Below are positions 43,820 through 54,615 of a stretch of DNA of 64,000 nucleotides, piece by piece. The position numbers were made by a program, and so were the translations under genes. Every line of letters begins with the position of its first letter. Position 1 is the stretch's first letter. The DNA comes from Candidatus Bathyarchaeota archaeon (GTDB lineage: Archaea > Thermoproteota > Bathyarchaeia > Bathyarchaeales > Bathycorpusculaceae), in NCBI GenBank assembly GCA_029907545.1, contig JARYLR010000003.1, positions 23,090-87,089 on the forward strand, given 5' to 3'. The notes beneath the pieces were generated by a model. The model was not told the DNA's origin and did no database searches. It was given only the letters and a program-made list of their open reading frames with translations.

Positions 43820-44677
43820 TTGAACAAAAAAAGAATCGCCATAGCGATACCTGCCTCCGTAGTCTCGGATACACCGCATTTACGCGAGAAAACCTCAAAA
43901 ATAGGTTTTATCGGCAGAGCAGCCGCGATTTTCCGTATCGAAGAGATCATCGTGTATTCAGATAACCTCCATGTAAATCAGTCCGTGGACATGGATCTGG
44001 TTGCGACGTTGCTCGCTTACATGGAGACCCCTCAGTATCTGCGCAAGAAACTCTTTAGACTTAGACCTGAACTGCAGTACGCGGGCATATTGCCGCCTTT
44101 GCGAACACGTCACCACCCATTGAACCGTAGAGCCAAAGACCTAAAGCTGGGAGAACATCGGGAAGGCATCACCTTGCCAACCAGCAAAGAAGGCACGCTT
44201 ATCGACATAGGTGTCGAGCAACCAGCACTACTGCCAAAAGAAAAGCTAATAGCAAACAAACGAGTAACAGTTAAAGTTGTATCCACCAAACTGCCGCGAG
44301 TTTTCGTAGAGCTAGTAGACCGAACCCAGATCACTGATTACTGGGGTTACTTGGTCACAGCAGAAAAACAGCCTCTTGGACAGATAATAACGCAGAGAGG
44401 CTTTGACTTGATCATCGCCACCTCTAGGCTTGGGACTCCCTTAAAAGGCGTGGCTGAGGAAATCGGTGAGAGATGGCAAAAAGCGAAGAGCATTCTTGTG
44501 GCGTTTGGAAGCCCGTCTCAGGGGCTACATGAAATAGTGAGGCATGAAGGTCTTAAACTTGAAGAGATGGCTGATTTCACGGTTAATATGATTCCATTGC
44601 AGGGTACGGAAACCGTGCGTACCGAAGAGGCCCTTATGGCAACTCTGGCAATTTTCAACATGTATTTCCCCTTATAA
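43820..44677 (+). CDS. SPOUT-superfamily putative RNA methyltransferase (DUF171/COG2106)
   Basis: 285 aa with a TTG start. The N-terminus IAIPASVVSDTPHLREKTSKIGFIGRAAAIFRIEEIIVY and the C-terminal LVAFGSPSQGL match this family. Confidence 0.68.
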   Translation: MNKKRIAIAIPASVVSDTPHLREKTSKIGFIGRAAAIFRIEEIIVYSDNLHVNQSVDMDLVATLLAYMETPQYLRKKLFRLRPELQYAGILPPLRTRHHPLNRRAKDLKLGEHREGITLPTSKEGTLIDIGVEQPALLPKEKLIANKRVTVKVVSTKLPRVFVELVDRTQITDYWGYLVTAEKQPLGQIITQRGFDLIIATSRLGTPLKGVAEEIGERWQKAKSILVAFGSPSQGLHEIVRHEGLKLEEMADFTVNMIPLQGTETVRTEEALMATLAIFNMYFPL

Positions 44678-44700
44678 AGAGCTAGCGCGCTTTCTCGAAG

Positions 44701-45768
44701 ATGGAGTGGCTCTTCTTCGAGGATAAAGGATTAAATGCCTGTTTCAGCTATGTGTGCGGTATGTATTTCGACGTCGCCATGCCTCTTACGCTTTTCGCGG
44801 TTGTTTTAGCCTCAATCTTTTTGGATAAAAAGGCTGAGAAAAAGCTGAAGGCAACGTTGGAAGAGAAGAAATTTCAAACGCGCGACGCAGTGATGCTTGT
44901 CGCCTCGATAAGTGTAGCGGTCTCACTTGTAGTGTATGTTCCACAGATGGCTATCGTGATTATGTTTCTTTTCGCCTATTCCATGCTACTTTTCATTTTC
45001 ACTTATCTTTTTTCAGACGTAAAGAAGCTTAGAGCTCAGCTGTTTCTGCTGTTGTCGATCGGAATCTGCCTTTTGGCTGTATTAGCAAGCTGGTTGGGCT
45101 TCATAACAGATGAAGCGATGGCTTATTGGGCTCTATACTATTTTGGGTCTCTAGCAGCCTTGGCTGCGGTCGCTGCCGTTTATGAATCTAAGCGAGTTGA
45201 CGAAAAAGAGAGATGGTATATTGCGGCTTTGCCGCCTACCATGTTTGTTGGCTTGTACCTGTTTTTCAGCCAATCGCCCCTGTGGTTTCCTTACCTACTG
45301 AACGTGTATGGAATAGTCTTCGCGTTACTGATTATCCTCTACTTGGGAAGCCTCTTCACTTGGAAAACCTCACTTGTCTTCGCGGTGCTTATCACGATCA
45401 TGGATATCATTCTCGTGTTGTTTACTGGAACAATGGTTTCTGCTGCCAAGCAGGTTTCAGGTCTGATGCTGCCCATTCTGGTTTCGATGCCCACGGTGCC
45501 AGAAATAATGTTAGAAGGGCGCAGGCTTTACATGTCTCTAGGTTTAGGAGACTTTTTCTTCGCAGGGCTTCTCACAGTGCAAGCGCTAAGAAGATATGGA
45601 AAAGCTTCCGCTCTTCTGTCCCTTGCTGCGATGGCGATTTCGTTCTTCATTTTTGAGATTCTTATGCTCAATTTCGAGTGGCAAGCACTTCCAGGCACTT
45701 TAATGATCATCTGCGGCTGGGCACCAATAGCACTAGGCGCGGAAATTGCCAGAAAAATGAAACTTTAG
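44701..45768 (+). CDS. polytopic membrane protein, presenilin/signal-peptide-peptidase-like (GxGD aspartyl protease family, tentative)
   Basis: 355 aa with about 9 TM helices. LGLGDFFFAGLL is a GxGD motif in a TM helix. A candidate first Asp lies in LITIMDIILV. The start may be a later Met (MYFDVAMPL). Confidence 0.5.
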   Translation: MEWLFFEDKGLNACFSYVCGMYFDVAMPLTLFAVVLASIFLDKKAEKKLKATLEEKKFQTRDAVMLVASISVAVSLVVYVPQMAIVIMFLFAYSMLLFIFTYLFSDVKKLRAQLFLLLSIGICLLAVLASWLGFITDEAMAYWALYYFGSLAALAAVAAVYESKRVDEKERWYIAALPPTMFVGLYLFFSQSPLWFPYLLNVYGIVFALLIILYLGSLFTWKTSLVFAVLITIMDIILVLFTGTMVSAAKQVSGLMLPILVSMPTVPEIMLEGRRLYMSLGLGDFFFAGLLTVQALRRYGKASALLSLAAMAISFFIFEILMLNFEWQALPGTLMIICGWAPIALGAEIARKMKL

Positions 45769-46428
45769 CCTTTTTCCTCCTTTGGCTTAGTATTGGCTAC
45801 TGGTGTTAGGATCACTACTGTTCAGTCTCCTATTCAAGAAGTATATAAACCATATGAACAATTTAAGATCCTACAGCAACTAGGTCTCTGATCAATGTCC
45901 AGAGTTTCCGTCTTTGTCTTTGAACTGTAACACCGTCTTCTGTTCTAACGACTCCCCGTATTCTTGCTATTTCTCAGGTAGAGCTAGTTCATTTGCCGTT
46001 TTGGCGACTTCTTCCGATATTGCTTTTGCCTTTAGTTTTCTTATGAAGCGGGCCAGCTATTGCAATGAATGAGAGTGTCTCTGCCATTTTGCCATCTTCC
46101 AGTAGACCAAGTTGCTATTCTTACTGTGTAGCGATGTTCATAGTTGCTGTAGTCCGGCACATATGCGAAATCTGTCAAGCCATGCATACTCGCCCGTTGA
46201 TGCCTCATTGTATCAAGTTTTTTAGAGTGCAAACCAGTATCATCATTAGTCTAAGGTTAACGCCTTTCTAGGTAATACAGATTATCAGATGTTCATTTAT
46301 TCTAATTTTTCTGCCTTGTTTGTCTTCGATTTTCTTATCTACTAGCGAATCAAGTATGGGAATTTGAAGTAGACTAACATTAAGTTCTTGCCTTATTTTT
46401 GCTTTTTCCGGTTAGACGTATTTAGCCT

Positions 46429-46671
46429 TTAGAAGTTATGTGACACGAGTTGATTATTTTTAGATATAATAAATAACGAAATTAAAAACGCAATCATGCC
46501 CGCAACTATCCAAATAATGCTGTTCCAGATAATACGACGCCACTCTTCGTTAGAAATTTCTTTTAGAATACTAATCGTAAAAAATCCGTTAAACCCTAAA
46601 CCTAAGCATAAAACCGTTACAAGAATCGAGGTCGAAACCGCTAATTCACTCCATTCCACGTTCCCTTTCAT
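46429..46671 (-). CDS. hypothetical small membrane protein (2 TM)
   Basis: 80-aa ORF with two hydrophobic helices in an AT-rich region. No family recognised. Confidence 0.35.
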   Translation of the reverse strand: MKGNVEWSELAVSTSILVTVLCLGLGFNGFFTISILKEISNEEWRRIIWNSIIWIVAGMIAFLISLFIISKNNQLVSHNF

Positions 46672-46905
46672 GCGCGTTCCTCCGTTTGTATCTTTTTTGG
46701 TTTTTCATTCTTAAATCTTTGTAGAGATTTATTCCAGTTCAGTTGAGTAGAACTTGGACTTTCAGTTTATCTTCTACCTTGAATGTTAAAACACTAGCAC
46801 TTCTCCAAAGCTAAGGATAATAGAAAAAGGAAGTTATTTCTTGTACTCGTAAAGGTGTGGCGCCCATCTGAGGTTCGTTTAACTCGTCTCCATTTCTCAA
46901 GTTTT

Positions 46906-47055
46906 TCAGAGCACTATAATTATATTAGATATCTCGGAGTATTCAGCTGTTTCTTCAGATGTTGTCTTAGCCTTCTTTAATTTGCTTTTCGTCCGCCATT
47001 CCCAAATGTTGATTCTAGCAATGGTCTCAGCCAATTCTATCCTTTCAGAAACCAT
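46906..47055 (-). pseudogene. truncated paralogue of the 67-aa gene immediately upstream
   Basis: Own translation: MVSERIELAETIARINIWEWRTKSKLKKAKTTSEETAEYSEISNIIIVL*. The segment RTKSKLKKAKTTSEETAEYSE parallels RRRAIKEIKEAGATSEDTAKTSEE of ORF 47064-47267. The DNA shares TCTTCAGATGTTG. Confidence 0.3.
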
Positions 47056-47063
47056 TGAAAAGA

Positions 47064-47267
47064 TTATTTCCTGTCTTCACAAGGAATATAATAGCGACGA
47101 TCTCTTGTCTTTTTGATATCTTTCATCGACGCTAGATATTGAAGGAATGATTCATCCATACCTAGTTCTTCACTTGTTTTGGCAGTATCTTCAGATGTTG
47201 CTCCTGCCTCCTTAATTTCTTTTATTGCTCGTCGTCTAGGATAATATGTAGCAAAGAACTCTGCCAT
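47064..47267 (-). CDS. small hypothetical protein (possible wHTH-like, ends with RRYYIP motif)
   Basis: 67-aa ORF 4 nt downstream of the 435-aa ORF. The pattern (A/G)ATSE-x-TAKTSEELG...RRYYI resembles small archaeal proteins I recall, but I cannot name the family. Confidence 0.45.
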   Translation of the reverse strand: MAEFFATYYPRRRAIKEIKEAGATSEDTAKTSEELGMDESFLQYLASMKDIKKTRDRRYYIPCEDRK

Positions 47268-47271
47268 TTAA

Positions 47272-48579
47272 TTACCCTCTGAGAAAACATGGAATGTGTA
47301 TTGTGGTCGTTATGTCTGCCAGTGCAAAGGGAACAGGCATAGGACCAAAATCAGTCCAATGCCACCATATGGCATCTAAGGTTGTTTTAAAAACAATCTT
47401 GATCAATCCGCAGTGTTTTCCCATGACAGTATTTAGCTTAAAGAACACAACATCGCTTTTGGTTTCCAGCGGACGCATTGTCCAATCCTTTTGGCTTTGA
47501 ACTTGATAATTATGGTCATCTGTAATTATCTGCTTAAATCGGGAAACCTGTTGACCCTCAGCGATTTTTATGGCAGTTGCTATTCCTTTAATGCCAAGCC
47601 CAACTGTTGCGCCGATTTTTGCAGGGGCTCCTGTTGGTAAAAGAGCACCTGACACGAACATTATTACTGTTCCTGTGTAATCCATCGTAGCTATTAGATC
47701 TGGTCTTACGAAACTATCGTGTTCTTCGTATTCTATGCCTTCGATCTCCAAAGCCGGAAAGCTATAGATTTCTATCATCGTGTTTCTTAGGCTAAACTCC
47801 CAATAATACCAAGGTGGATCCTCTTCTGTGCTAAAGTAGGTGTTTGTAAAGTTTAGTGTTATTCCAACATCATCCTCGGTTCCCGGTAGCAATGCCCACT
47901 CAGCCCACCCTAATCCTAATCCAACCTCGAAAATGCCGAGAGAACCTACATTAATCACTTGTCTGGTCTCAAAATATCTTTCGCTGAATTCTGGGTCGCT
48001 CTCCTCCTTCCACATTGACCCGCCGTAAAACATTGCACTGTCAATTGGATGTGCAGAACTAGGATCGAGTTGATTCAGATTTCCGATAGCACAGAATTTT
48101 GGTGGTTCGATTTTATTTCTTTGGTTTGTCCATGATATGTATTGGAAGTCTAGTACTCCAGATAGCCATATTTCTCCGAACGCGAAAGTCACCAAATGCT
48201 GGCCATATTGCCAGCTTAGTGGGTACATGAATCCGTCTCCCCAAGCATAGATGGCTCCGTACGACCCCATATTCCACATCCAATCCTGCCAAAGCAAACC
48301 AGCATCCACCATCACATCATCAATGTAATCATCAGCGTACCCTCCCAAAAAGAAGGTGCCGCCTGGAAAGCATGTCTGCGTTTTCACTATGTACCTAACG
48401 TCGTTGTCACCGCTGTTTGGCACATATACTCGAAACCTCACAAGCCAAGCTTTCTCTCCTGTTGCCGTTGCTACATGAAACTGCAGCTTTCCACCCCGCC
48501 ATCGCTCCACGAACTCAAACTCCAAAAGATGATAACCCCCTCCTAAGACGCCGAGACTGATGTTTGCCGGGGCTGGCAA
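47272..48579 (-). CDS. hypothetical secreted protein, C-terminal portion of a dockerin-bearing protein (or separate overlapping gene)
   Basis: 435-aa ORF with a TTG start overlapping the upstream ORF by 37 nt. The N-terminal part repeats a beta-sandwich-like pattern seen in the upstream ORF (FRVYVPNSGDNDVRYIVKTQ..GGTFFLGGYADDYIDDVMVDAGLL versus FEFNVPGDGEDEIYYYVYTR..SNTFYLWPSWVDDWILNVKVDNQL). Confidence 0.6.
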   Translation of the reverse strand: MPAPANISLGVLGGGYHLLEFEFVERWRGGKLQFHVATATGEKAWLVRFRVYVPNSGDNDVRYIVKTQTCFPGGTFFLGGYADDYIDDVMVDAGLLWQDWMWNMGSYGAIYAWGDGFMYPLSWQYGQHLVTFAFGEIWLSGVLDFQYISWTNQRNKIEPPKFCAIGNLNQLDPSSAHPIDSAMFYGGSMWKEESDPEFSERYFETRQVINVGSLGIFEVGLGLGWAEWALLPGTEDDVGITLNFTNTYFSTEEDPPWYYWEFSLRNTMIEIYSFPALEIEGIEYEEHDSFVRPDLIATMDYTGTVIMFVSGALLPTGAPAKIGATVGLGIKGIATAIKIAEGQQVSRFKQIITDDHNYQVQSQKDWTMRPLETKSDVVFFKLNTVMGKHCGLIKIVFKTTLDAIWWHWTDFGPMPVPFALADITTTIHIPCFLRG

Positions 48580-49043
48580 GAAGGATCGCCTACGCTGCCA
48601 TCATACTTCAGCTGGTTATCTACTTTCACGTTAAGTATCCAATCGTCAACCCAACTTGGCCAAAGATAAAACGTATTCGAGCTTGACACATAAATTCTCG
48701 TATAAACATAATAGTAAATCTCATCTTCACCATCGCCGGGCACATTAAACTCGAAACTTGTTGAATAGGCAACAGGCACAAACGGAGTCTCAGCCGGCGT
48801 TCCAAATTTCCTAACTACAAAACTGTAATCTTTCAGATCAATAACCCTATCCTCGATAACGTCAGCCTGTGAATACCACTTAGGCTGCCCCAGAAAAGAA
48901 CCATATGTCAAAGCTGTTCTAAGTATATCCTTAAGAGTAACCATTCCATCACAGTCAACATCCCCTTCAAGATCCGGCGGCAACCTATGATAATCAACAA
49001 CGTAAACAGATGCGAAAACCAAGGGAAACGAATGAAAATACAC
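48543..49043 (-). CDS. dockerin-domain protein fragment (N-terminal portion)
   Basis: 166-aa ORF with a GTG start. It has two EF-hand-like dockerin repeats, DVDCDGMVTLKD and DVIEDRVIDLKD (nt 48801-48965), followed by a beta-sandwich-like segment. A likely signal peptide is encoded upstream in another frame (see findings). Confidence 0.6.
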   Translation of the reverse strand: MYFHSFPLVFASVYVVDYHRLPPDLEGDVDCDGMVTLKDILRTALTYGSFLGQPKWYSQADVIEDRVIDLKDYSFVVRKFGTPAETPFVPVAYSTSFEFNVPGDGEDEIYYYVYTRIYVSSSNTFYLWPSWVDDWILNVKVDNQLKYDGSVGDPSCQPRQTSVSAS

Positions 49044-49221
49044 CGAAAAAAAGAAGCATCAAACTTGCTAGCAAGGCAATGTTTTCTCAACCACAATTTA
49101 TACCTCGCCTTACTGGAAACATTAGATACCCAGAAACATACATACTTTTCCCACAACGTCCACTAAGAAGTTAAACTGTGAAAGATGAAACGAGAAGAGA
49201 CCTAAAACAAGGTGCCAAGTT

Positions 49222-49548
49222 CTATCCGAATAGTGCTCCCAGTCCTTCGAGCGCTGCTTCTTCCTTAGCTTTCTCGTCCTCTTTCTTCTTCTTTTCATCC
49301 TCTTTCGGCTTAGCCTCTCCCGCTGGCGCAGCCGCTGCCGCTGGAACTGTTGCTGCCGGCGCAGCCATCATCGCCGGAGCAGACTTTATCGCCTCATCAA
49401 TCTTAACATCCGCTAACGAGGCTACAAGAGCCTTAACCCGTACAACATCAGCATTTATACCCGCAGATGTCAAAACTTGGGTTACGTTAGCTTCGTTTAT
49501 CTCCTTCCCTGCCTTGTGGAGAAGCATTGCAGCGTAGATATATTCCAT
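49222..49548 (-). CDS. rpl12: 50S ribosomal stalk protein P1 (aL12)
   Basis: 108 aa. It has [19 protein letters not shown]..., an Ala-rich hinge, a Lys/Glu-rich stretch and the terminal EGLGALFG. Confidence 0.93.
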
Positions 49549-49819
49549 ACTGGTTCACCTATGTTTGCCGAAAAGGAAAGCGCTACAGAGTTATTAAGTT
49601 TTTTGTTTAAACATAGATTTTTGGGTTCCTTTACGTCTTTTATTCTTGGGCAATGTGGCATGAATGAGTATTTGTATGCTGTTAGCTAGTTGAGACTGAT
49701 TCAATTCACGTTTGTCTTTATCTTTTTTTCTTTGCAGATATAGGGGTGGAAGATTATTCCATAACGTTTAAGTTTCGCCCTAATCTTCGTAAACGCAATC
49801 AGAGAAAGGAGAGATAATA

Positions 49820-50836
49820 GTGAAACATAAACTTGCCAAGAGTTTAGCGATCTCAACGATAGTCGCGCTTCTTCTTGCAACATTTGCTTTTCACACCATA
49901 TCAGCCTCGCCAACTCCGCGAATATATCTAACTCCTTCAAACATAATCTACACGACTGACAACGCCACTGTTGGCACAAAATTCAATGTTACCGCATCTT
50001 GCGAAGACGTCCCAGACCTAGGAGGAGCACAAATCTGCATCATATACAACGACACAATAGTCAACGCAACAAGATGGTTTCTCCCATCAACCGACTTTTT
50101 CATGCCTCAACAGCCGGCTCCAACAACTTTGCCTACACCACCTGATACAGGATATCAACATCTTCCATCCGGCTACGGTGTCATCAAGATAGCTGTAAGT
50201 AAAGGAGGCTTACCCCCTACTTCCCCATGGGGGCATTCGGGGAAAATAGCAGTAATCGAGTTCAGGATAAGAGCTCTTCCAACTTCAGGAAAATTTTCGA
50301 CTTTGCTTAACATCAACAACATAGACACTTTCTTGCTTGACCCGTTAGCCAGCGAAATCCCTGAAACAATAAAGGAAGACGGATACTATGAGATAACAAA
50401 GGTAGTGGCTCCGCCGAAAACCTTCACATTGACCATATCCGCAACGTTTGGCGGCACAACAGATCCTGCTCCCGGAGAACACAAATACACTGAGGGAGAC
50501 ATCGTCACGGTGACCGCTATAAACATGTCTGGATATATCTTCAGCCAATGGGAACTTGACTCAGTTAACGCTGGTTCTACTAATCCTATAAACATCACGA
50601 TGGATGGAAACCACACTTTGCGTGCAGTGTTTAGAGCATTTGGAAACGAAGGAGACGTTGATAAAAACGGAATAGTTGAGCTTACAGACTACTTGCTGAC
50701 GGCGCTTGCCTTTGGAAGTAAAGAAGACTATGGACGCTGGGATCCCAGATGCGACTTGGATAACAATGGCAAAGTGGATATTGCGGACATCTACATAGTT
50801 CGAAAGAACTATGGAAAAGATTACAGGCCACCATAA
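49820..50836 (+). CDS. secreted cohesin-domain + InlB B-repeat + dockerin-domain protein
   Basis: 338 aa with a GTG start 8 nt after AAGGAGAG. The signal peptide is MKHKLAKSLAISTIVALLLATFAFHTISA. The cohesin-like region has VGTKFNVTASCEDVPDLGGAQICIIYNDTIVNAT...GKIAVIEFRIRAL. The InlB B-repeat is FTLTISATFGGTTDPAPGEHKYTEGDIVTVTAINMSGYIFSQWE...NHTLRAVF. The dockerin has DVDKNGIVELTD and DLDNNGKVDIAD. Confidence 0.75.
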   Translation: MKHKLAKSLAISTIVALLLATFAFHTISASPTPRIYLTPSNIIYTTDNATVGTKFNVTASCEDVPDLGGAQICIIYNDTIVNATRWFLPSTDFFMPQQPAPTTLPTPPDTGYQHLPSGYGVIKIAVSKGGLPPTSPWGHSGKIAVIEFRIRALPTSGKFSTLLNINNIDTFLLDPLASEIPETIKEDGYYEITKVVAPPKTFTLTISATFGGTTDPAPGEHKYTEGDIVTVTAINMSGYIFSQWELDSVNAGSTNPINITMDGNHTLRAVFRAFGNEGDVDKNGIVELTDYLLTALAFGSKEDYGRWDPRCDLDNNGKVDIADIYIVRKNYGKDYRPP

Positions 50837-50919
50837 CAAGAGATTGCACTCTTCCCCTTTTCTTCTAAAACCGATGTTGGAAAACATCAGAAAAGCTGGT
50901 TCTACTACGCCTTTTCCAG

Positions 50920-51777
50920 CTATTTTGCTGCCTCTGAAAAGCGGCTTAGGCAAGATGCTTCTGCATGTGCCTTCCGCAAAAGACCTTCTATGGTATCCTT
51001 GGTAGGGATAGAAGCGTTAAGCGATAATGCAAATGCTTCTTGAAAGGCTATTTGGATCAATGTTGACATGTTCTCAGGTGTTGGGTATGCTATGCTAAGC
51101 GATAATGCAAATGCTTCTGCGTGTGCTTCCTCGACGCTTTTTCTTGTTCCGTCAACATCTACTCGAAGCTGATCCTGAGATATTAACAAGCCATCATCAT
51201 ACACTAGTCTCATTGATAATACGCTTTCCACGGGCTTGATGCCGAGCTTTGATAATACGCTGGCAAGTCTCTCATCAATCACGCCGCCCTTCTTAGCAAC
51301 TAGAGTGTCCTTGCTTACCCATACGCTGCCGGACTCGATTCGGGTGGGCAGACCGACTGCGTTAAGCTGGCTGATTATTGGGCCTGGTGGTTGCCCTGTG
51401 TTGCCGGCTGGCACTATCACGTCGAAGGCTGCGATGTCGCCGGCTTTGGCTGTTGTCTTAACTTTTCCTTTCTCCAAGATGAGAGCTAGCTCGAACGGGT
51501 TCAAATTGGTGAGAAGAAAAATGTTCGAGCCTTCTAGGTGTTCTTCAAGTTTTTCTAAGCTTGGTTTTTCTTTGCAGTTTTCTAGGGCTTTCTTCATCAG
51601 CGTGTTCTTGACGACTCGCATGTAAACTTTCCCTGTAAGATTCTTCTTGAAGGCTTGTAGCTGCGCTGCTCTAACTTTTTGTAGGCTAGCGATTCCGATG
51701 ACCTTGTGCTGGTTTACTAGCTTCGCCATTTCTTCAACTTTGCTGTTTTTTTCTTGTAGGATTTGCTGGGATGGCAT
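50920..51777 (-). CDS. rpl10: 50S ribosomal stalk protein P0 (uL10), short form lacking the acidic C-terminal tail
   Basis: 285 aa. The N-terminal uL10 domain is KVEEMAKLVNQHKVIGIASLQKVRAAQLQAFKK. Repeated P1-binding helices follow (AHAEAFALSLSIAYPTPENM..., FQEAFALSLNASIPTKDTIEGLL...). It ends ...ASCLSRFSEAAK with no hinge or GLGALFG-type tail. Confidence 0.88.
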   Translation of the reverse strand: MPSQQILQEKNSKVEEMAKLVNQHKVIGIASLQKVRAAQLQAFKKNLTGKVYMRVVKNTLMKKALENCKEKPSLEKLEEHLEGSNIFLLTNLNPFELALILEKGKVKTTAKAGDIAAFDVIVPAGNTGQPPGPIISQLNAVGLPTRIESGSVWVSKDTLVAKKGGVIDERLASVLSKLGIKPVESVLSMRLVYDDGLLISQDQLRVDVDGTRKSVEEAHAEAFALSLSIAYPTPENMSTLIQIAFQEAFALSLNASIPTKDTIEGLLRKAHAEASCLSRFSEAAK

Positions 51778-51790
51778 TTTTCTTCACTTT

Positions 51791-52444
51791 TTATGGGGTT
51801 ATCTTTACTGGCGCGCCCATGGCTGTTTTGATGTAAATGTTTTTGATGTTTTTTATTCCTTTCTTTAGTTTTCCTTCCAGAACTCTTAGGACTGTCTGGA
51901 TGTTTTCAACTATTTCTTCTTCTTTCATGCTTTCTTTTCCAACATGGCACTGAACTATAGGTTGCGAGCGCATGCGTACAATTATTGTTTTCCGATGTTT
52001 CGCTATTAGGGACGCGATGTCTGCTGCTGGTGGAACTGGTATCGGCATTTTTCCTCTTGGGCCAAGAATGGGCCCGAGGATTCGGCCTACCAGCGGCATA
52101 AGGGGGGCTTCGGCGATGAAGAAGTCGTAGCTGTTTGCAATCTTGCGGAGATCTCTCTTTTTTCCAGCTAGACCGTCAAGTTCTGCTCTTTCAATTACAA
52201 GATCAGCGTTTGCTCTGCGCGCCTTTAATGCCAGCTCACCTGACCCTATCACGCATATTTTGTTAGCTTTCTCTTGGACAAAGTGAGGCAGTTCTACAAG
52301 TTCTTGGAGCTTGCTTTCGGGTGATTTCATGTCGATTTCCCTGAGATTCAGAACAAGCTCTATTGATTGGTCGAATTTTCTTTTTTGCGATTTTTCCTTA
52401 ACTTCTTTGACCGCGTTAAGGAGCGCCTTTTGATCTAACGGCAT
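51791..52444 (-). CDS. rpl1: 50S ribosomal protein uL1
   Basis: The track ORF begins at 52504. MPLDQKALLNAVKEVKEKSQKRKFDQSIELVLNLREIDMK, starting at 52444, is the typical uL1 N-terminus. Confidence 0.92.
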   Translation of the reverse strand: MPLDQKALLNAVKEVKEKSQKRKFDQSIELVLNLREIDMKSPESKLQELVELPHFVQEKANKICVIGSGELALKARRANADLVIERAELDGLAGKKRDLRKIANSYDFFIAEAPLMPLVGRILGPILGPRGKMPIPVPPAADIASLIAKHRKTIIVRMRSQPIVQCHVGKESMKEEEIVENIQTVLRVLEGKLKKGIKNIKNIYIKTAMGAPVKITP

Positions 52445-52500
52445 GTTCAGGGCCTCGTGCCATTGAGGAAATGTTAAGGAGTTATAAAAGTATTGTCTCA

Positions 52501-52992
52501 TCATTCATTCTTAGCGAATATTTCATCGTATTTGCCTTGGTCAAGATCCTTCTGTACCTCGCGGGGATCTCTGTTGTCAACAGTCACGCCCATGCTGACG
52601 CAGCTTCCAAGTACTTCTTTCGCTGCGCCTTTCAGGGTTTTTGCCAGAAGCTCAGAGCGCTTGATTTTGGCTATGCGAATAATCTGCTCCATCGAGAGAT
52701 TGCCAACTTTTGCCGTATTAGGCGTGGCTGAGCCTTTTTCTATCTTCAGTTCGCTTACAATCAATGCGGATGACGTTGGAGTGCCTACTGTAACTTCGAA
52801 CTGCTTCGTGTCAGGGTCAACAATGACCTTAACCGGAACCTTCATTCCCGCATAGTCTTTGGTGACTTCGTTGATCTTGTTTACAATCATCATCACGTTT
52901 ACGCCTAGAGGACCTAGCGCAGGCCCAAGTGGAGGACCAGCATTTGCCTGTCCTCCGCTGACAAGCAGTTCAACGACTTTCTTTTCAGGCAT
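52501..52992 (-). CDS. rpl11: 50S ribosomal protein uL11
   Basis: MPEKKVVELLVSGGQANAGPPLGPALGPLGVNV... is the canonical uL11 N-terminal domain. The track start is at 53004 (MKSKMPEKK); starting at 52992 avoids overlap with spt5. Confidence 0.93.
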   Translation of the reverse strand: MPEKKVVELLVSGGQANAGPPLGPALGPLGVNVMMIVNKINEVTKDYAGMKVPVKVIVDPDTKQFEVTVGTPTSSALIVSELKIEKGSATPNTAKVGNLSMEQIIRIAKIKRSELLAKTLKGAAKEVLGSCVSMGVTVDNRDPREVQKDLDQGKYDEIFAKNE

Positions 52993-52993
52993 C

Positions 52994-53482
52994 TTACTTT
53001 TCACCTACTGTCTGTGTTCTGCTTTTCTCTACGAGTTTAACGTAGTCTGAGTGAACCGTTATCGGGAGCGGAAAAGTTGCTTCCAGAAGCTCAAGAGTGA
53101 CTTCTGCTTTAGACTTGTCGATGCGGGTTATCTTCGCGCGCATCCCCTTGAAGGGCCCACCTGTGACTTCCACAATATCGCTTTCGTTTAGTTCTTCGAT
53201 TACGGGCTTTTTCACAATGTATCTTTCAATTTCTGAGAAGCTTACTATGCCAGGCACTCTGGAGCGGACATGTTTTATTCCGGCTATGGCTTCTTCCACG
53301 AAATGAGGCCCTTCAGCTTCCATGAAAACGTATCCTCTTAAGGCCTCTGGCACGAGTATAGCTTTTACTCTGATCCTATTCATTTCGACTTTGGCGGCTA
53401 CCAGCCTTGCGACGTTCTTTTCTTGGCCTGTCGTGGTTTTGACAGCAAAGATTTTTGTCAAGTGTTCTTCAGGTTTTTCCAA
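52994..53482 (-). CDS. spt5: transcription elongation factor Spt5 (NusG)
   Basis: 162 aa. It has an NGN domain (IFAVKTTTGQEKNVARLV) and a KOW motif (VEVTGGPFKGMRAKITRID). It sits in the conserved secE-spt5-rpl11 order. Confidence 0.9.
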   Translation of the reverse strand: MEKPEEHLTKIFAVKTTTGQEKNVARLVAAKVEMNRIRVKAILVPEALRGYVFMEAEGPHFVEEAIAGIKHVRSRVPGIVSFSEIERYIVKKPVIEELNESDIVEVTGGPFKGMRAKITRIDKSKAEVTLELLEATFPLPITVHSDYVKLVEKSRTQTVGEK

Positions 53483-53503
53483 GGTTTTTTCCTTCTCAGA
53501 ATA

Positions 53504-53680
53504 TCAGCTTGAGGCTGTTGTGATGACGGTGGAAAGCATTTTTATGATGTAGCCGATAAGTCCGACTGCGCCGATGCCTAGGAAACATATTTTTATGGAG
53601 AGCCATAGCTCGCTTTTTCCTGGTTTTATGGCTAGTTTTAGGGTTCTTGCGCATTGGGAAAGGAATGATTGCAGGCCCAT
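53504..53680 (-). CDS. secE: protein translocase subunit SecE (Sec61 gamma)
   Basis: Own translation (58 aa, below the ORF-track cutoff): MGLQSFLSQCARTLKLAIKPGKSELWLSIKICFLGIGAVGLIGYIIKMLSTVITTASS*. It has the KP-x-x-x-E motif plus a single TM helix, in the conserved position upstream of spt5. Confidence 0.75.
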   Translation of the reverse strand: MGLQSFLSQCARTLKLAIKPGKSELWLSIKICFLGIGAVGLIGYIIKMLSTVITTASS

Positions 53681-53790
53681 GGTTTATCGTACACTCAGCT
53701 TTTCGCATCCGATATAAATATTGCTGTACCGGAAGGTTTTCGGATAGGATAACTGGGGGCAGTTCTATTAACTTTTCTCTCTTTCCTACT

Positions 53791-54615
53791 CTAGGTCTTC
53801 TTGAAACCTAGACTTACCTCTTCAAGCATTCTGATTAGGGGCTGCTTGTTTTCGCCTTTAATGCCCTTCCAGTCTAAGATCGCACATTCGACTTTTTCCA
53901 AAGTTCTTTCCACACAGTGCCTAAGCGTTTCAGTGCTGATCTCCGCAATGGCATGTTTCGGGATCATGTGACCGAAAGCAGTTTCCTCTTCAAGAGCCAT
54001 ATGTGTGAACCTACTGTTATAGTGCGGTCCGCCGATGCCTAACACGGCTACTGCTGAGGGCAGGTTGAATTTTGAAGAAGCCTTTATTACGGCGTGGGCG
54101 ACCACTTCCGCTGCTTTTGAATCATGCCACTGCGCAGGTGCGCTTCCCAGTTCAGCGAACATTGTTGGAGCATCTAGAGAGGGACCGTGATGTGTGCATT
54201 CATAGGAGACTTCGTATGCTAGCTGCCTTTCTTCCTTGAGTTTTGCCATAGTTTTTAAGGCAGTTTTCATGGCGTTTGCAGGCGAGATTGATACACGTTT
54301 CGGGATCCCCCCTAAAACGGCATCAGAAAGGTTGCCTGGTGTGTGCACTGAGAGCGTGGGTTTTCCGCTTAGGCTGCTGTGTCTTGAGATGAAGATGACG
54401 AGTTTGGGATTTGGAAAGAAGTCTAGTAAGTTTTGAGCTTGGACCGGTTCTTCGTTTATGGTTACAAGTTTGATTTCTGTATTGTTGATTGTGGCTTCGT
54501 AGATGGGGTTGTTTTGGTGATTTTCTTCTGTCTTGTTAAAGGGGTATAGCGTTAGGATTTGTTTTTTGATGTTGAGTCCTGCTGCGTCTTTGGTTGACGC
54601 CACGATAAGGAACAT
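53791..54615 (-). CDS. dtdA: D-aminoacyl-tRNA deacylase, archaeal type (DTD2)
   Basis: 274 aa. The N-terminus MFLIVASTKDAAGLNIKKQIL and the blocks ISRHSS, ECTHHGPS, GGPHYN are typical of the tRNA_deacylase (PF04414) family. Confidence 0.85.
   Translation of the reverse strand: MFLIVASTKDAAGLNIKKQILTLYPFNKTEENHQNNPIYEATINNTEIKLVTINEEPVQAQNLLDFFPNPKLVIFISRHSSLSGKPTLSVHTPGNLSDAVLGGIPKRVSISPANAMKTALKTMAKLKEERQLAYEVSYECTHHGPSLDAPTMFAELGSAPAQWHDSKAAEVVAHAVIKASSKFNLPSAVAVLGIGGPHYNSRFTHMALEEETAFGHMIPKHAIAEISTETLRHCVERTLEKVECAILDWKGIKGENKQPLIRMLEEVSLGFKKT

Follow-up and report, generated by a model that had tools for sequence, protein, structure and literature searches.

The 64,000-nt stretch of a Candidatus Bathyarchaeota metagenome-assembled genome (MAG) analysed here (the window; all coordinates are positions within it) carries a plus-strand open reading frame (ORF) of 338 aa at 49820-50836, inside the 1371-nt gap between the minus-strand genes for the ribosomal stalk proteins P0 and P1. 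We think it probable, with some reserve, that this ORF encodes a monovalent adaptor ('mini-scaffoldin') of a Bathyarchaeial surface cohesin-dockerin network, that it reached the locus by a lineage-specific insertion, and that the neighbouring genes beyond P1 are decaying and separate from it. The protein combines one cohesin and one dockerin, with an InlB B-repeat at the place of the X-module, and is called Coh-X-Doc below. The first-pass annotation had placed a secreted cohesin, InlB-B-repeat and dockerin protein between P0 and P1, and family profiles, PDB searches, AlphaFold2 (AF2) modelling and Foldseek, with Pfam for the InlB B-repeat, bear this out.

Domain architecture and conservation of the Coh-X-Doc protein

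The product of the ORF is a 100% match to NCBI QHH24_01760, which is annotated there as 'hypothetical protein'. The gene and the parts of its product are:

49820-50836, plus strand: Coh-X-Doc gene, ORF of 338 aa with a GTG start and a Shine-Dalgarno (SD)-like AAGGAGAG at 49806-49813
49820-49906, plus strand: signal peptide, aa 1-29, with a basic n-region KHKLAK, a hydrophobic core and ISA/SP, read by eye from the sequence
49907-50413, plus strand: cohesin domain, aa ~30-198, by profile nearest to type II cohesins (family profile, Foldseek)
50426-50635, plus strand: InlB B-repeat (Flg_new_2), aa 203-272, at the X-module place of X-Doc dyads (Pfam PF18998)
50651-50806, plus strand: dockerin, aa 278-329, with the two Ca-loop/helix repeats DVDKNGIVELTD and DLDNNGKVDIAD (sub-threshold Pfam match, PDB, family profile)

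To the cohesin domain point both profile and structural comparisons. A profile of the N-terminal domain built from 15 relatives had 17 matches in the PDB, 16 of them cohesins (best 3l8q_A, 6.4e-8), and nine of the 15 relatives matched Pfam PF00963 singly, the best at 8.6e-08. The AF2 model, computed from the family alignment, reached a mean predicted local distance difference test score (pLDDT) of 84.6. It begins with a helix (aa 2-22) and a low-pLDDT linker, after which residues 34-193 are all-beta, with pLDDT mostly >80, and form the nine-stranded beta-sandwich/jelly-roll of the cohesin fold. Foldseek aligned the model with about 50 cohesin chains at a probability of 1.00 and a TM (target) of 0.53-0.74, including A. 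fulgidus 2xdh (0.70), and the top match of the whole model was the CipA Coh9-X-DocII structure 3kcp_A (E 2.3e-13); identity to bacterial cohesins in these alignments is only about 10-18%. The InlB B-repeat matched PF18998 with an E-value of 2.2e-11 and 44 bits, against a gathering score of 23.6, over 69 of the 73 model positions.

For the C-terminal module, a PDB sequence search with the whole protein gave dockerins as the sole meaningful matches (E 0.0026-0.04), and a profile of the C-terminal region from ten family members matched at 1.2e-10, with type II X-Doc dockerins as the best. Both Ca loops, inspected by eye, have D/N at positions 1, 3, 5 and 12 and E or D at position 9. DSSP assignments on the model place a helix at residues 288-296 with DVDKNGIVELTD and another at 321-329 with DLDNNGKVDIAD, giving the two segments of a dockerin. 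On the basis of the Pfam, PDB, family-profile and AF2/Foldseek results, the architecture is signal peptide - cohesin - InlB B-repeat - dockerin. The single chain, secreted according to the signal peptide read by eye, thus holds at least one cohesin together with a dockerin, as an adaptor scaffoldin does. The protein also contains seven N-x-S/T sequons and is probably N-glycosylated.

The sister species GCA_018396615.1 (locus L001/L006) has an orthologue with 89% amino-acid identity at the same position. Pairwise ratios of non-synonymous to synonymous substitution (dN/dS) between 49820-50836 and L001:5521-6540, a comparison of two genomes only, were:

Whole Coh-X-Doc gene: 0.106
Cohesin: 0.16 (dN 0.116)
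B-repeat: 0.01
Dockerin: 0 (0 non-synonymous changes in 66 codons, dS 0.46)
Comparison genes: P0 0.055, P1 0.069

The overall value of 0.106, together with the value of 0 in the dockerin, indicates a functional gene under purifying selection. Constraint on the X-Doc half far exceeds that on the cohesin. In the cohesin loop at aa ~90-103, the window and the sister sequence differ by compensating indels.

These data also bear on whether the arrangement is an artefact, either a chimeric contig or an ORF that is not a real gene. The source is a MAG, and a neighbouring gene has possible indel errors; yet the same gene order is found in the sister MAG, an independent assembly from another study that is collinear over more than 12 kb at about 87% nucleotide identity, selection on the ORF is strong, and the blocks upstream of both P1 and Coh-X-Doc are conserved (see below). 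We give the artefact next to no weight.

Candidate partners and the block beyond P1

In the proposed network, the dockerin of the connector would dock onto a cohesin exposed at the cell surface, and its cohesin would hold another dockerin-bearing protein as partner or cargo. Candidates for the displayed cohesin come from the family itself. Fourteen cohesin relatives (P0016, P0018-P0020, P0022 and P0101-P0108 among them) have a signal peptide, one cohesin and, in place of the dockerin, a tail made of [IV]PE[FYL], a transmembrane segment and basic residues (RKK). These anchored single-cohesin paralogues, the nearest that Coh-X-Doc has elsewhere, are short, about 225-270 aa, and make up most of the cohesin subfamily; a search with the cohesin-domain profile added only further short anchored paralogues. 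At loci L051 and L052, a protein with two cohesins and a dockerin is encoded beside an anchored single-cohesin paralogue and PKD-domain surface proteins. The clusters at L051:173-2986 and L052:799-8678, in which the two-cohesin protein also carries CARDB, look like surface scaffold loci.

The protein might instead bind itself, its own dockerin engaging its own cohesin either in trans, building head-to-tail chains or a lattice on the surface, or in cis, as a closed and autoinhibited molecule, with no separate partners. Cohesin and dockerin do lie on one polypeptide, and the anchored paralogues share its cohesin subfamily, so that a dockerin binding them might bind its own cohesin as well. An invariant dockerin beside a cohesin with a dN of 0.116 would nevertheless fit different, separate partners better than self-binding, as far as two genomes can indicate, and in known scaffoldins the cohesin and the dockerin of one chain differ in specificity (PMC4959524). 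We consider self-association unlikely.

As for partners encoded nearby, the 64-kb window contains no other cohesin, and its sole other dockerin belongs to a broken gene beyond P1, here called Doc-620. The first-pass annotation had listed this as a second dockerin-bearing protein (48543-49043) and had seen in it and Coh-X-Doc a gene set splitting the ribosomal operon that could give a minimal scaffold. One gene does split the operon; the others lie past its end, in an insertion of 3390 bp. The minus-strand ORFs found there measure 166 aa (48543-49043), 435 aa (47272-48579), 67 aa (47064-47267) and 80 aa (46429-46671), and the first of them is the N-terminal part of a single frameshifted gene of about 620 aa that includes the second. 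The features of this block are:

45778-49167, no strand: 3390-bp insertion specific to this genome, downstream of P1 (blastn against L001)
47272-49058, minus strand: Doc-620, a pseudogene or misassembled gene with an N-terminal dockerin and an all-beta domain of ~500 aa (tblastn, translation)
47064-47267, minus strand: small 67-aa gene with a winged helix-turn-helix-like look, conserved partner downstream of Doc-620 (homologues in L048, L049 and L050)
46850-47063, minus strand: frameshifted pseudocopy of a second small partner gene (direct repeats D1-D3, alignment, tblastx to L050 13099-13309)
46429-46671, minus strand: 80-aa ORF with two hydrophobic segments, which may not be a gene (sub-threshold matches only)
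46292-46410, minus strand: relic, fragment of a small partner gene (tblastx/tblastn to L050)
46098-46206, minus strand: relic, fragment of another Doc-620 gene (tblastx/tblastn to L050 and P0036)

Fused, the 166-aa and 435-aa ORFs give 99-100% coverage of homologues of 610-631 aa, which tblastn aligns collinearly in frame -3 and then in frame -2, with the switch near 48570-48606. The homologues start with a signal peptide, where the window copy is interrupted by a stop and shifts frame at a T7 run (49038-49061), and the second Ca loop of the window copy is degenerate (DVIEDR). The N-terminal dockerin of the family is genuine (profile against PDB 1.8e-12; 27 of 40 members match Pfam). Every intact Doc-620 homologue examined is followed directly by a gene of 66-77 aa homologous to 47064-47267, and this two-gene module occurs in unrelated Bathyarchaeial contexts (L048:6676-8740, L049:8001-10094, L050:9001-13327), once as two tandem modules.

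The scaffold proposed from these genes would require Coh-X-Doc to recruit the dockerin protein encoded just past P1, the two forming a functional set. The genes lie less than 1 kb apart across P1, the neighbour's family has its genuine N-terminal dockerin, and both dockerins fall in related Bathyarchaeial families (the P0032 dockerin shares 38% identity with the window dockerin). The sister genome, however, has the cohesin gene and lacks the entire 3.4-kb block, with 101 bp in its place. The neighbour itself is frameshifted, truncated at the signal-peptide start and degenerate in its second Ca loop, with relics of further copies around it, and elsewhere Doc-620 forms a self-contained two-gene module, in unrelated contexts, with no cohesin gene noted among the called genes of the three loci. 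Since the sister genome keeps the cohesin gene without the block, the two are uncoupled. The Doc-620 neighbour is unlikely to serve the cohesin gene as a functional partner and would represent a decaying relic of a later, separate insertion of the two-gene module. A local two-component scaffold is thus decidedly improbable.

Much of the insertion has a G+C content of 34-42%, and around it we found no bounding tRNA, clear target-site duplication or terminal inverted repeat. The low-G+C part at 45778-47063, with its decayed module copies, suggests that insertion and decay have recurred here. In Pfam and NCBIfam, the five ORFs past P1 had no usable match. The remaining ~500 aa of Doc-620 have relatives confined to a small family, with 78 representatives among 1.84 billion protein clusters. 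Searching IMG/VR viral contigs turned up no member of the family, and its model (pLDDT 82) had no credible match in BFVD. Foldseek matches of this model in the PDB were weak (E >= 2e-4, TM <= 0.24), and the top 50 were dominated by pore formers of the alpha-hemolysin/leukocidin type. As a bolder side reading of the model, the Doc-620 family could be a mobile, dockerin-targeted, toxin-like module.

Several observations weigh against an adaptor in a surface network. Among the Pfam families implied by the first-pass annotation, Flg_new_2 stands above its cut-off, whereas Dockerin_1 (PF00404) reaches 16.3 bits on Coh-X-Doc, under the cut-off of 22.9, and Cohesin (PF00963) gives no match to the window protein at E<=0.1. 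The PEF-CTERM-like tails of the anchored paralogues, which resemble archaeosortase signals, fall below the NCBIfam cut-offs (TIGR03024/TIGR04296), with P0022 scoring 16.9 bits against 25 for PEFG-CTERM and the others giving no match. The partners of both the cohesin and the dockerin of the connector are predicted ones: the anchoring cohesin and intact dockerin cargo are known only from other Bathyarchaeia, the view of this same organism being that of the 64-kb window. MAG assembly errors, instead of true lesions, could account for the frameshifts of the neighbouring gene. Finally, the promoters and terminators proposed below are called from sequence and from conservation between two genomes only. 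As a separate remark on the tails, the NCBIfam PEF-CTERM models may miss a Bathyarchaeial variant.

The P0-P1 junction in Bathyarchaeia

The archaeal L11-L1-P0(L10)-P1(L12) cluster is kept in the window in its order and orientation, with SecE and Spt5 ahead of it, and all six genes, on the minus strand in the order SecE, Spt5, L11, L1, P0 and P1, have strong Pfam matches. The genes of the cluster and the intergenic regions at the junction are:

53504-53680, minus strand: SecE (Pfam)
52994-53482, minus strand: Spt5/NusG (Pfam)
52501-53004, minus strand: L11 (Pfam)
51791-52504, minus strand: L1 (Pfam)
50920-51777, minus strand: rplP0 (L10/P0), 285 aa, final gene of the L11-L1-P0 run (Pfam Ribosomal_L10 and RL10P_insert)
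50837-50919, no strand: convergent spacer of 83 nt separating the cohesin gene and P0 at their 3' ends; both strands have T-rich tracts
49549-49819, no strand: divergent intergenic region of 271 nt with two conserved blocks, putative promoter/5' untranslated regions (sister-genome identity)
49761-49819: block that would serve Coh-X-Doc, with TTTAAG at 49767-49772 and the SD-like AAGGAGAG
49549-49618: block that would serve P1, with TATA-like TTTAAAC (GTTTAAAC) at 49605-49612 and the SD AGGTGA
49222-49548, minus strand: rplP1 (L12/P1 stalk protein), 108 aa, with the C-terminus EGLGALFG (Pfam Ribosomal_60s, 6.6e-15)

We compared the surroundings of P0 in 42 species-level loci of Bathyarchaeia. 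The P1 start lies 27-41 nt past the P0 stop in 22 of them (median 27), whereas in the window P1 does not follow P0 immediately on the same strand: the two are 1371 nt apart, with an antisense gene between them. Because of this tight spacing in 22 other species, the window arrangement is, by this comparison, derived, and it was found only here and in the sister species. The synteny thus supports the claim of an insertion into a normally tight P0-P1 pair, and the possibility, raised in the first-pass annotation, that the arrangement is ancestral does not hold. In a common ancestor of the MAG and the one sister species, the gene would have inserted, in opposite orientation, into the rplP0-rplP1 spacer of 27-41 nt. 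More distant Coh-X-Doc homologues, with 47-50% identity, lie beside unrelated metabolic genes.

The entry of the gene would have severed P1 from the L11-L1-P0 transcript, leaving its expression to a conserved TATA-like promoter of its own. Identity between the window and the sister sequence is distributed as follows:

Block of 70 nt before the P1 ATG: 100%
Block of 59 nt before the cohesin GTG: 97%
Central part of the 271-nt spacer: 78%
Coding regions: 85-92%
83-nt convergent spacer: 71%, the least conserved segment

That the P1 block is identical over all its 70 nt, while the central part of the spacer reaches 78%, suggests that P1 is run from this promoter and that rplP1 would now be a separate transcription unit. 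In relatives the region upstream of P1 is the 3' end of P0, and the promoter-like block is therefore taken to be new to the window lineage. An own promoter for P1 had been anticipated in the first-pass annotation, with a TATA-like box at 49600-49607; the box is present, slightly displaced, at 49605-49612, and its function is the predicted one. The 83-nt convergent spacer may hold archaeal terminators. No Rfam family was detected in 44000-54000, and the structure of the P1 leader is not unusual (z +1.28).

Could the gene have a functional link with the ribosome or with translation, such as co-regulation with the stalk proteins? Its position, stable in two species, is all that speaks for this. 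The gene lies on the opposite strand behind its own promoter-like block and encodes a secretion signal and extracellular domains, its homologues at 47-50% identity stand among metabolic genes, and unrelated insertions occur at the P0-P1 junction in two other loci (L019 and L027). Such a link is hardly credible.

The opinion that an insertion into this core ribosomal operon is unusual was overstated. About 17 of the 42 loci have no P1 in the available sequence downstream of P0, most of them with a P0 at 61-66% identity; three of these end soon past P0 and the rest reach about 4-6 kb beyond, with T-rich sequence and unrelated genes after P0. Because of these loci and of the two other insertions, the P0-P1 junction has been broken repeatedly in Bathyarchaeia, and its split is tolerated rather than exceptional.

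In L027 (6780-7665), an insert of ~0.7 kb lies within the 3' end of P0, which gains a new ending, ...KLPN before the stop, while the orphaned original end (…SSRVPTLQEKVSTEKS before the stop) is retained just upstream of P1. In L019 (6001-10517), a truncated P0 with the same ...KLPN ending is followed after 7 nt by a tyrosine integrase gene (PF00589, 5e-11) and then by a gene for a NosD/beta-helix-dockerin protein. In these other Bathyarchaeia the rplP0 3' end appears to be the target of an integrase-bearing element. The integrase and NosD-dockerin genes of L019 and the orphaned P0 end of L027, with the shared 'KLPN' ending, led us to consider that the rplP0 3' end and the P0-P1 spacer might be a recurrent landing site for integrative elements carrying cohesin/dockerin genes, Coh-X-Doc being domesticated cargo whose integrase was lost. 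This is a doubtful extension. The 6 kb available for L019 did not yield the attR of its element. In the window, unlike L027, the sequence upstream of P1 retains nothing of the ancestral P0 3' end.

With respect to the stalk proteins themselves, the window P0 matches P0 3a1y_G in the PDB (6e-54). The P0 proteins of all 42 Bathyarchaeia examined have lengths of 280-299 aa and lack the acidic ...GLGALFG C-terminal tail that P1 has, whereas Pyrococcus and Haloarcula P0 are 339-348 aa, with an additional hinge and tail of ~55 aa. The stalk in Bathyarchaeia may thus present one factor-binding tail fewer.

Relation to known cohesin-dockerin systems

Monovalent adaptor scaffoldins are a described class of bacterial cellulosomes (PMC4959524). 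R. flavefaciens ScaC, with one cohesin and one dockerin, has the same single cohesin and C-terminal dockerin on a secreted chain as the window protein, and its cohesin (5lxv) was matched both by the cohesin profile and by Foldseek. The window protein differs from these adaptors in being archaeal, with no cellulolytic context seen, in having an InlB B-repeat between the modules, and in that its partners are predicted. The order of cohesin, small beta module and dockerin is also that of Clostridium thermocellum CipA Coh9-X-DocII (3kcp_A, 4fl4), but the middle module of the window protein is a Flg_new_2/InlB B-repeat, not the CipA X-module, and there are no further cohesins and no carbohydrate-binding module.

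Among archaea, anaerobic methanotrophic ANME-1 and ANME-2 have abundant dockerin-cohesin proteins, for which adhesion (surface attachment or cell-cell) has been proposed (PMC9012536, PMC5244752). The A. fulgidus and ANME proteins resemble the window protein in being archaeal, in their non-cellulolytic settings and, in some cases, in having both modules in one protein. The window protein differs in its phylum, Bathyarchaeia, and its family stands apart by the InlB B-repeat spacer and by anchored paralogues with PEF-CTERM-like tails. A search of the available literature found no paper on cohesin or dockerin modules in Bathyarchaeia. To the known non-cellulosomal archaeal cohesins and dockerins, our analysis adds a Bathyarchaeial family with anchored single-cohesin and Coh-X-Doc connector forms.

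The genomic position of the gene is a lineage-specific curiosity rather than a puzzle, although it suggests that P1, of which each ribosome needs several copies, can be expressed from a promoter of its own. For cohesin-dockerin pairs outside cellulosomes, above all those of archaea, function is still largely unassigned, and a connector whose X-Doc half is invariant between two species offers a tractable module pair in a phylum with almost no cultured members.

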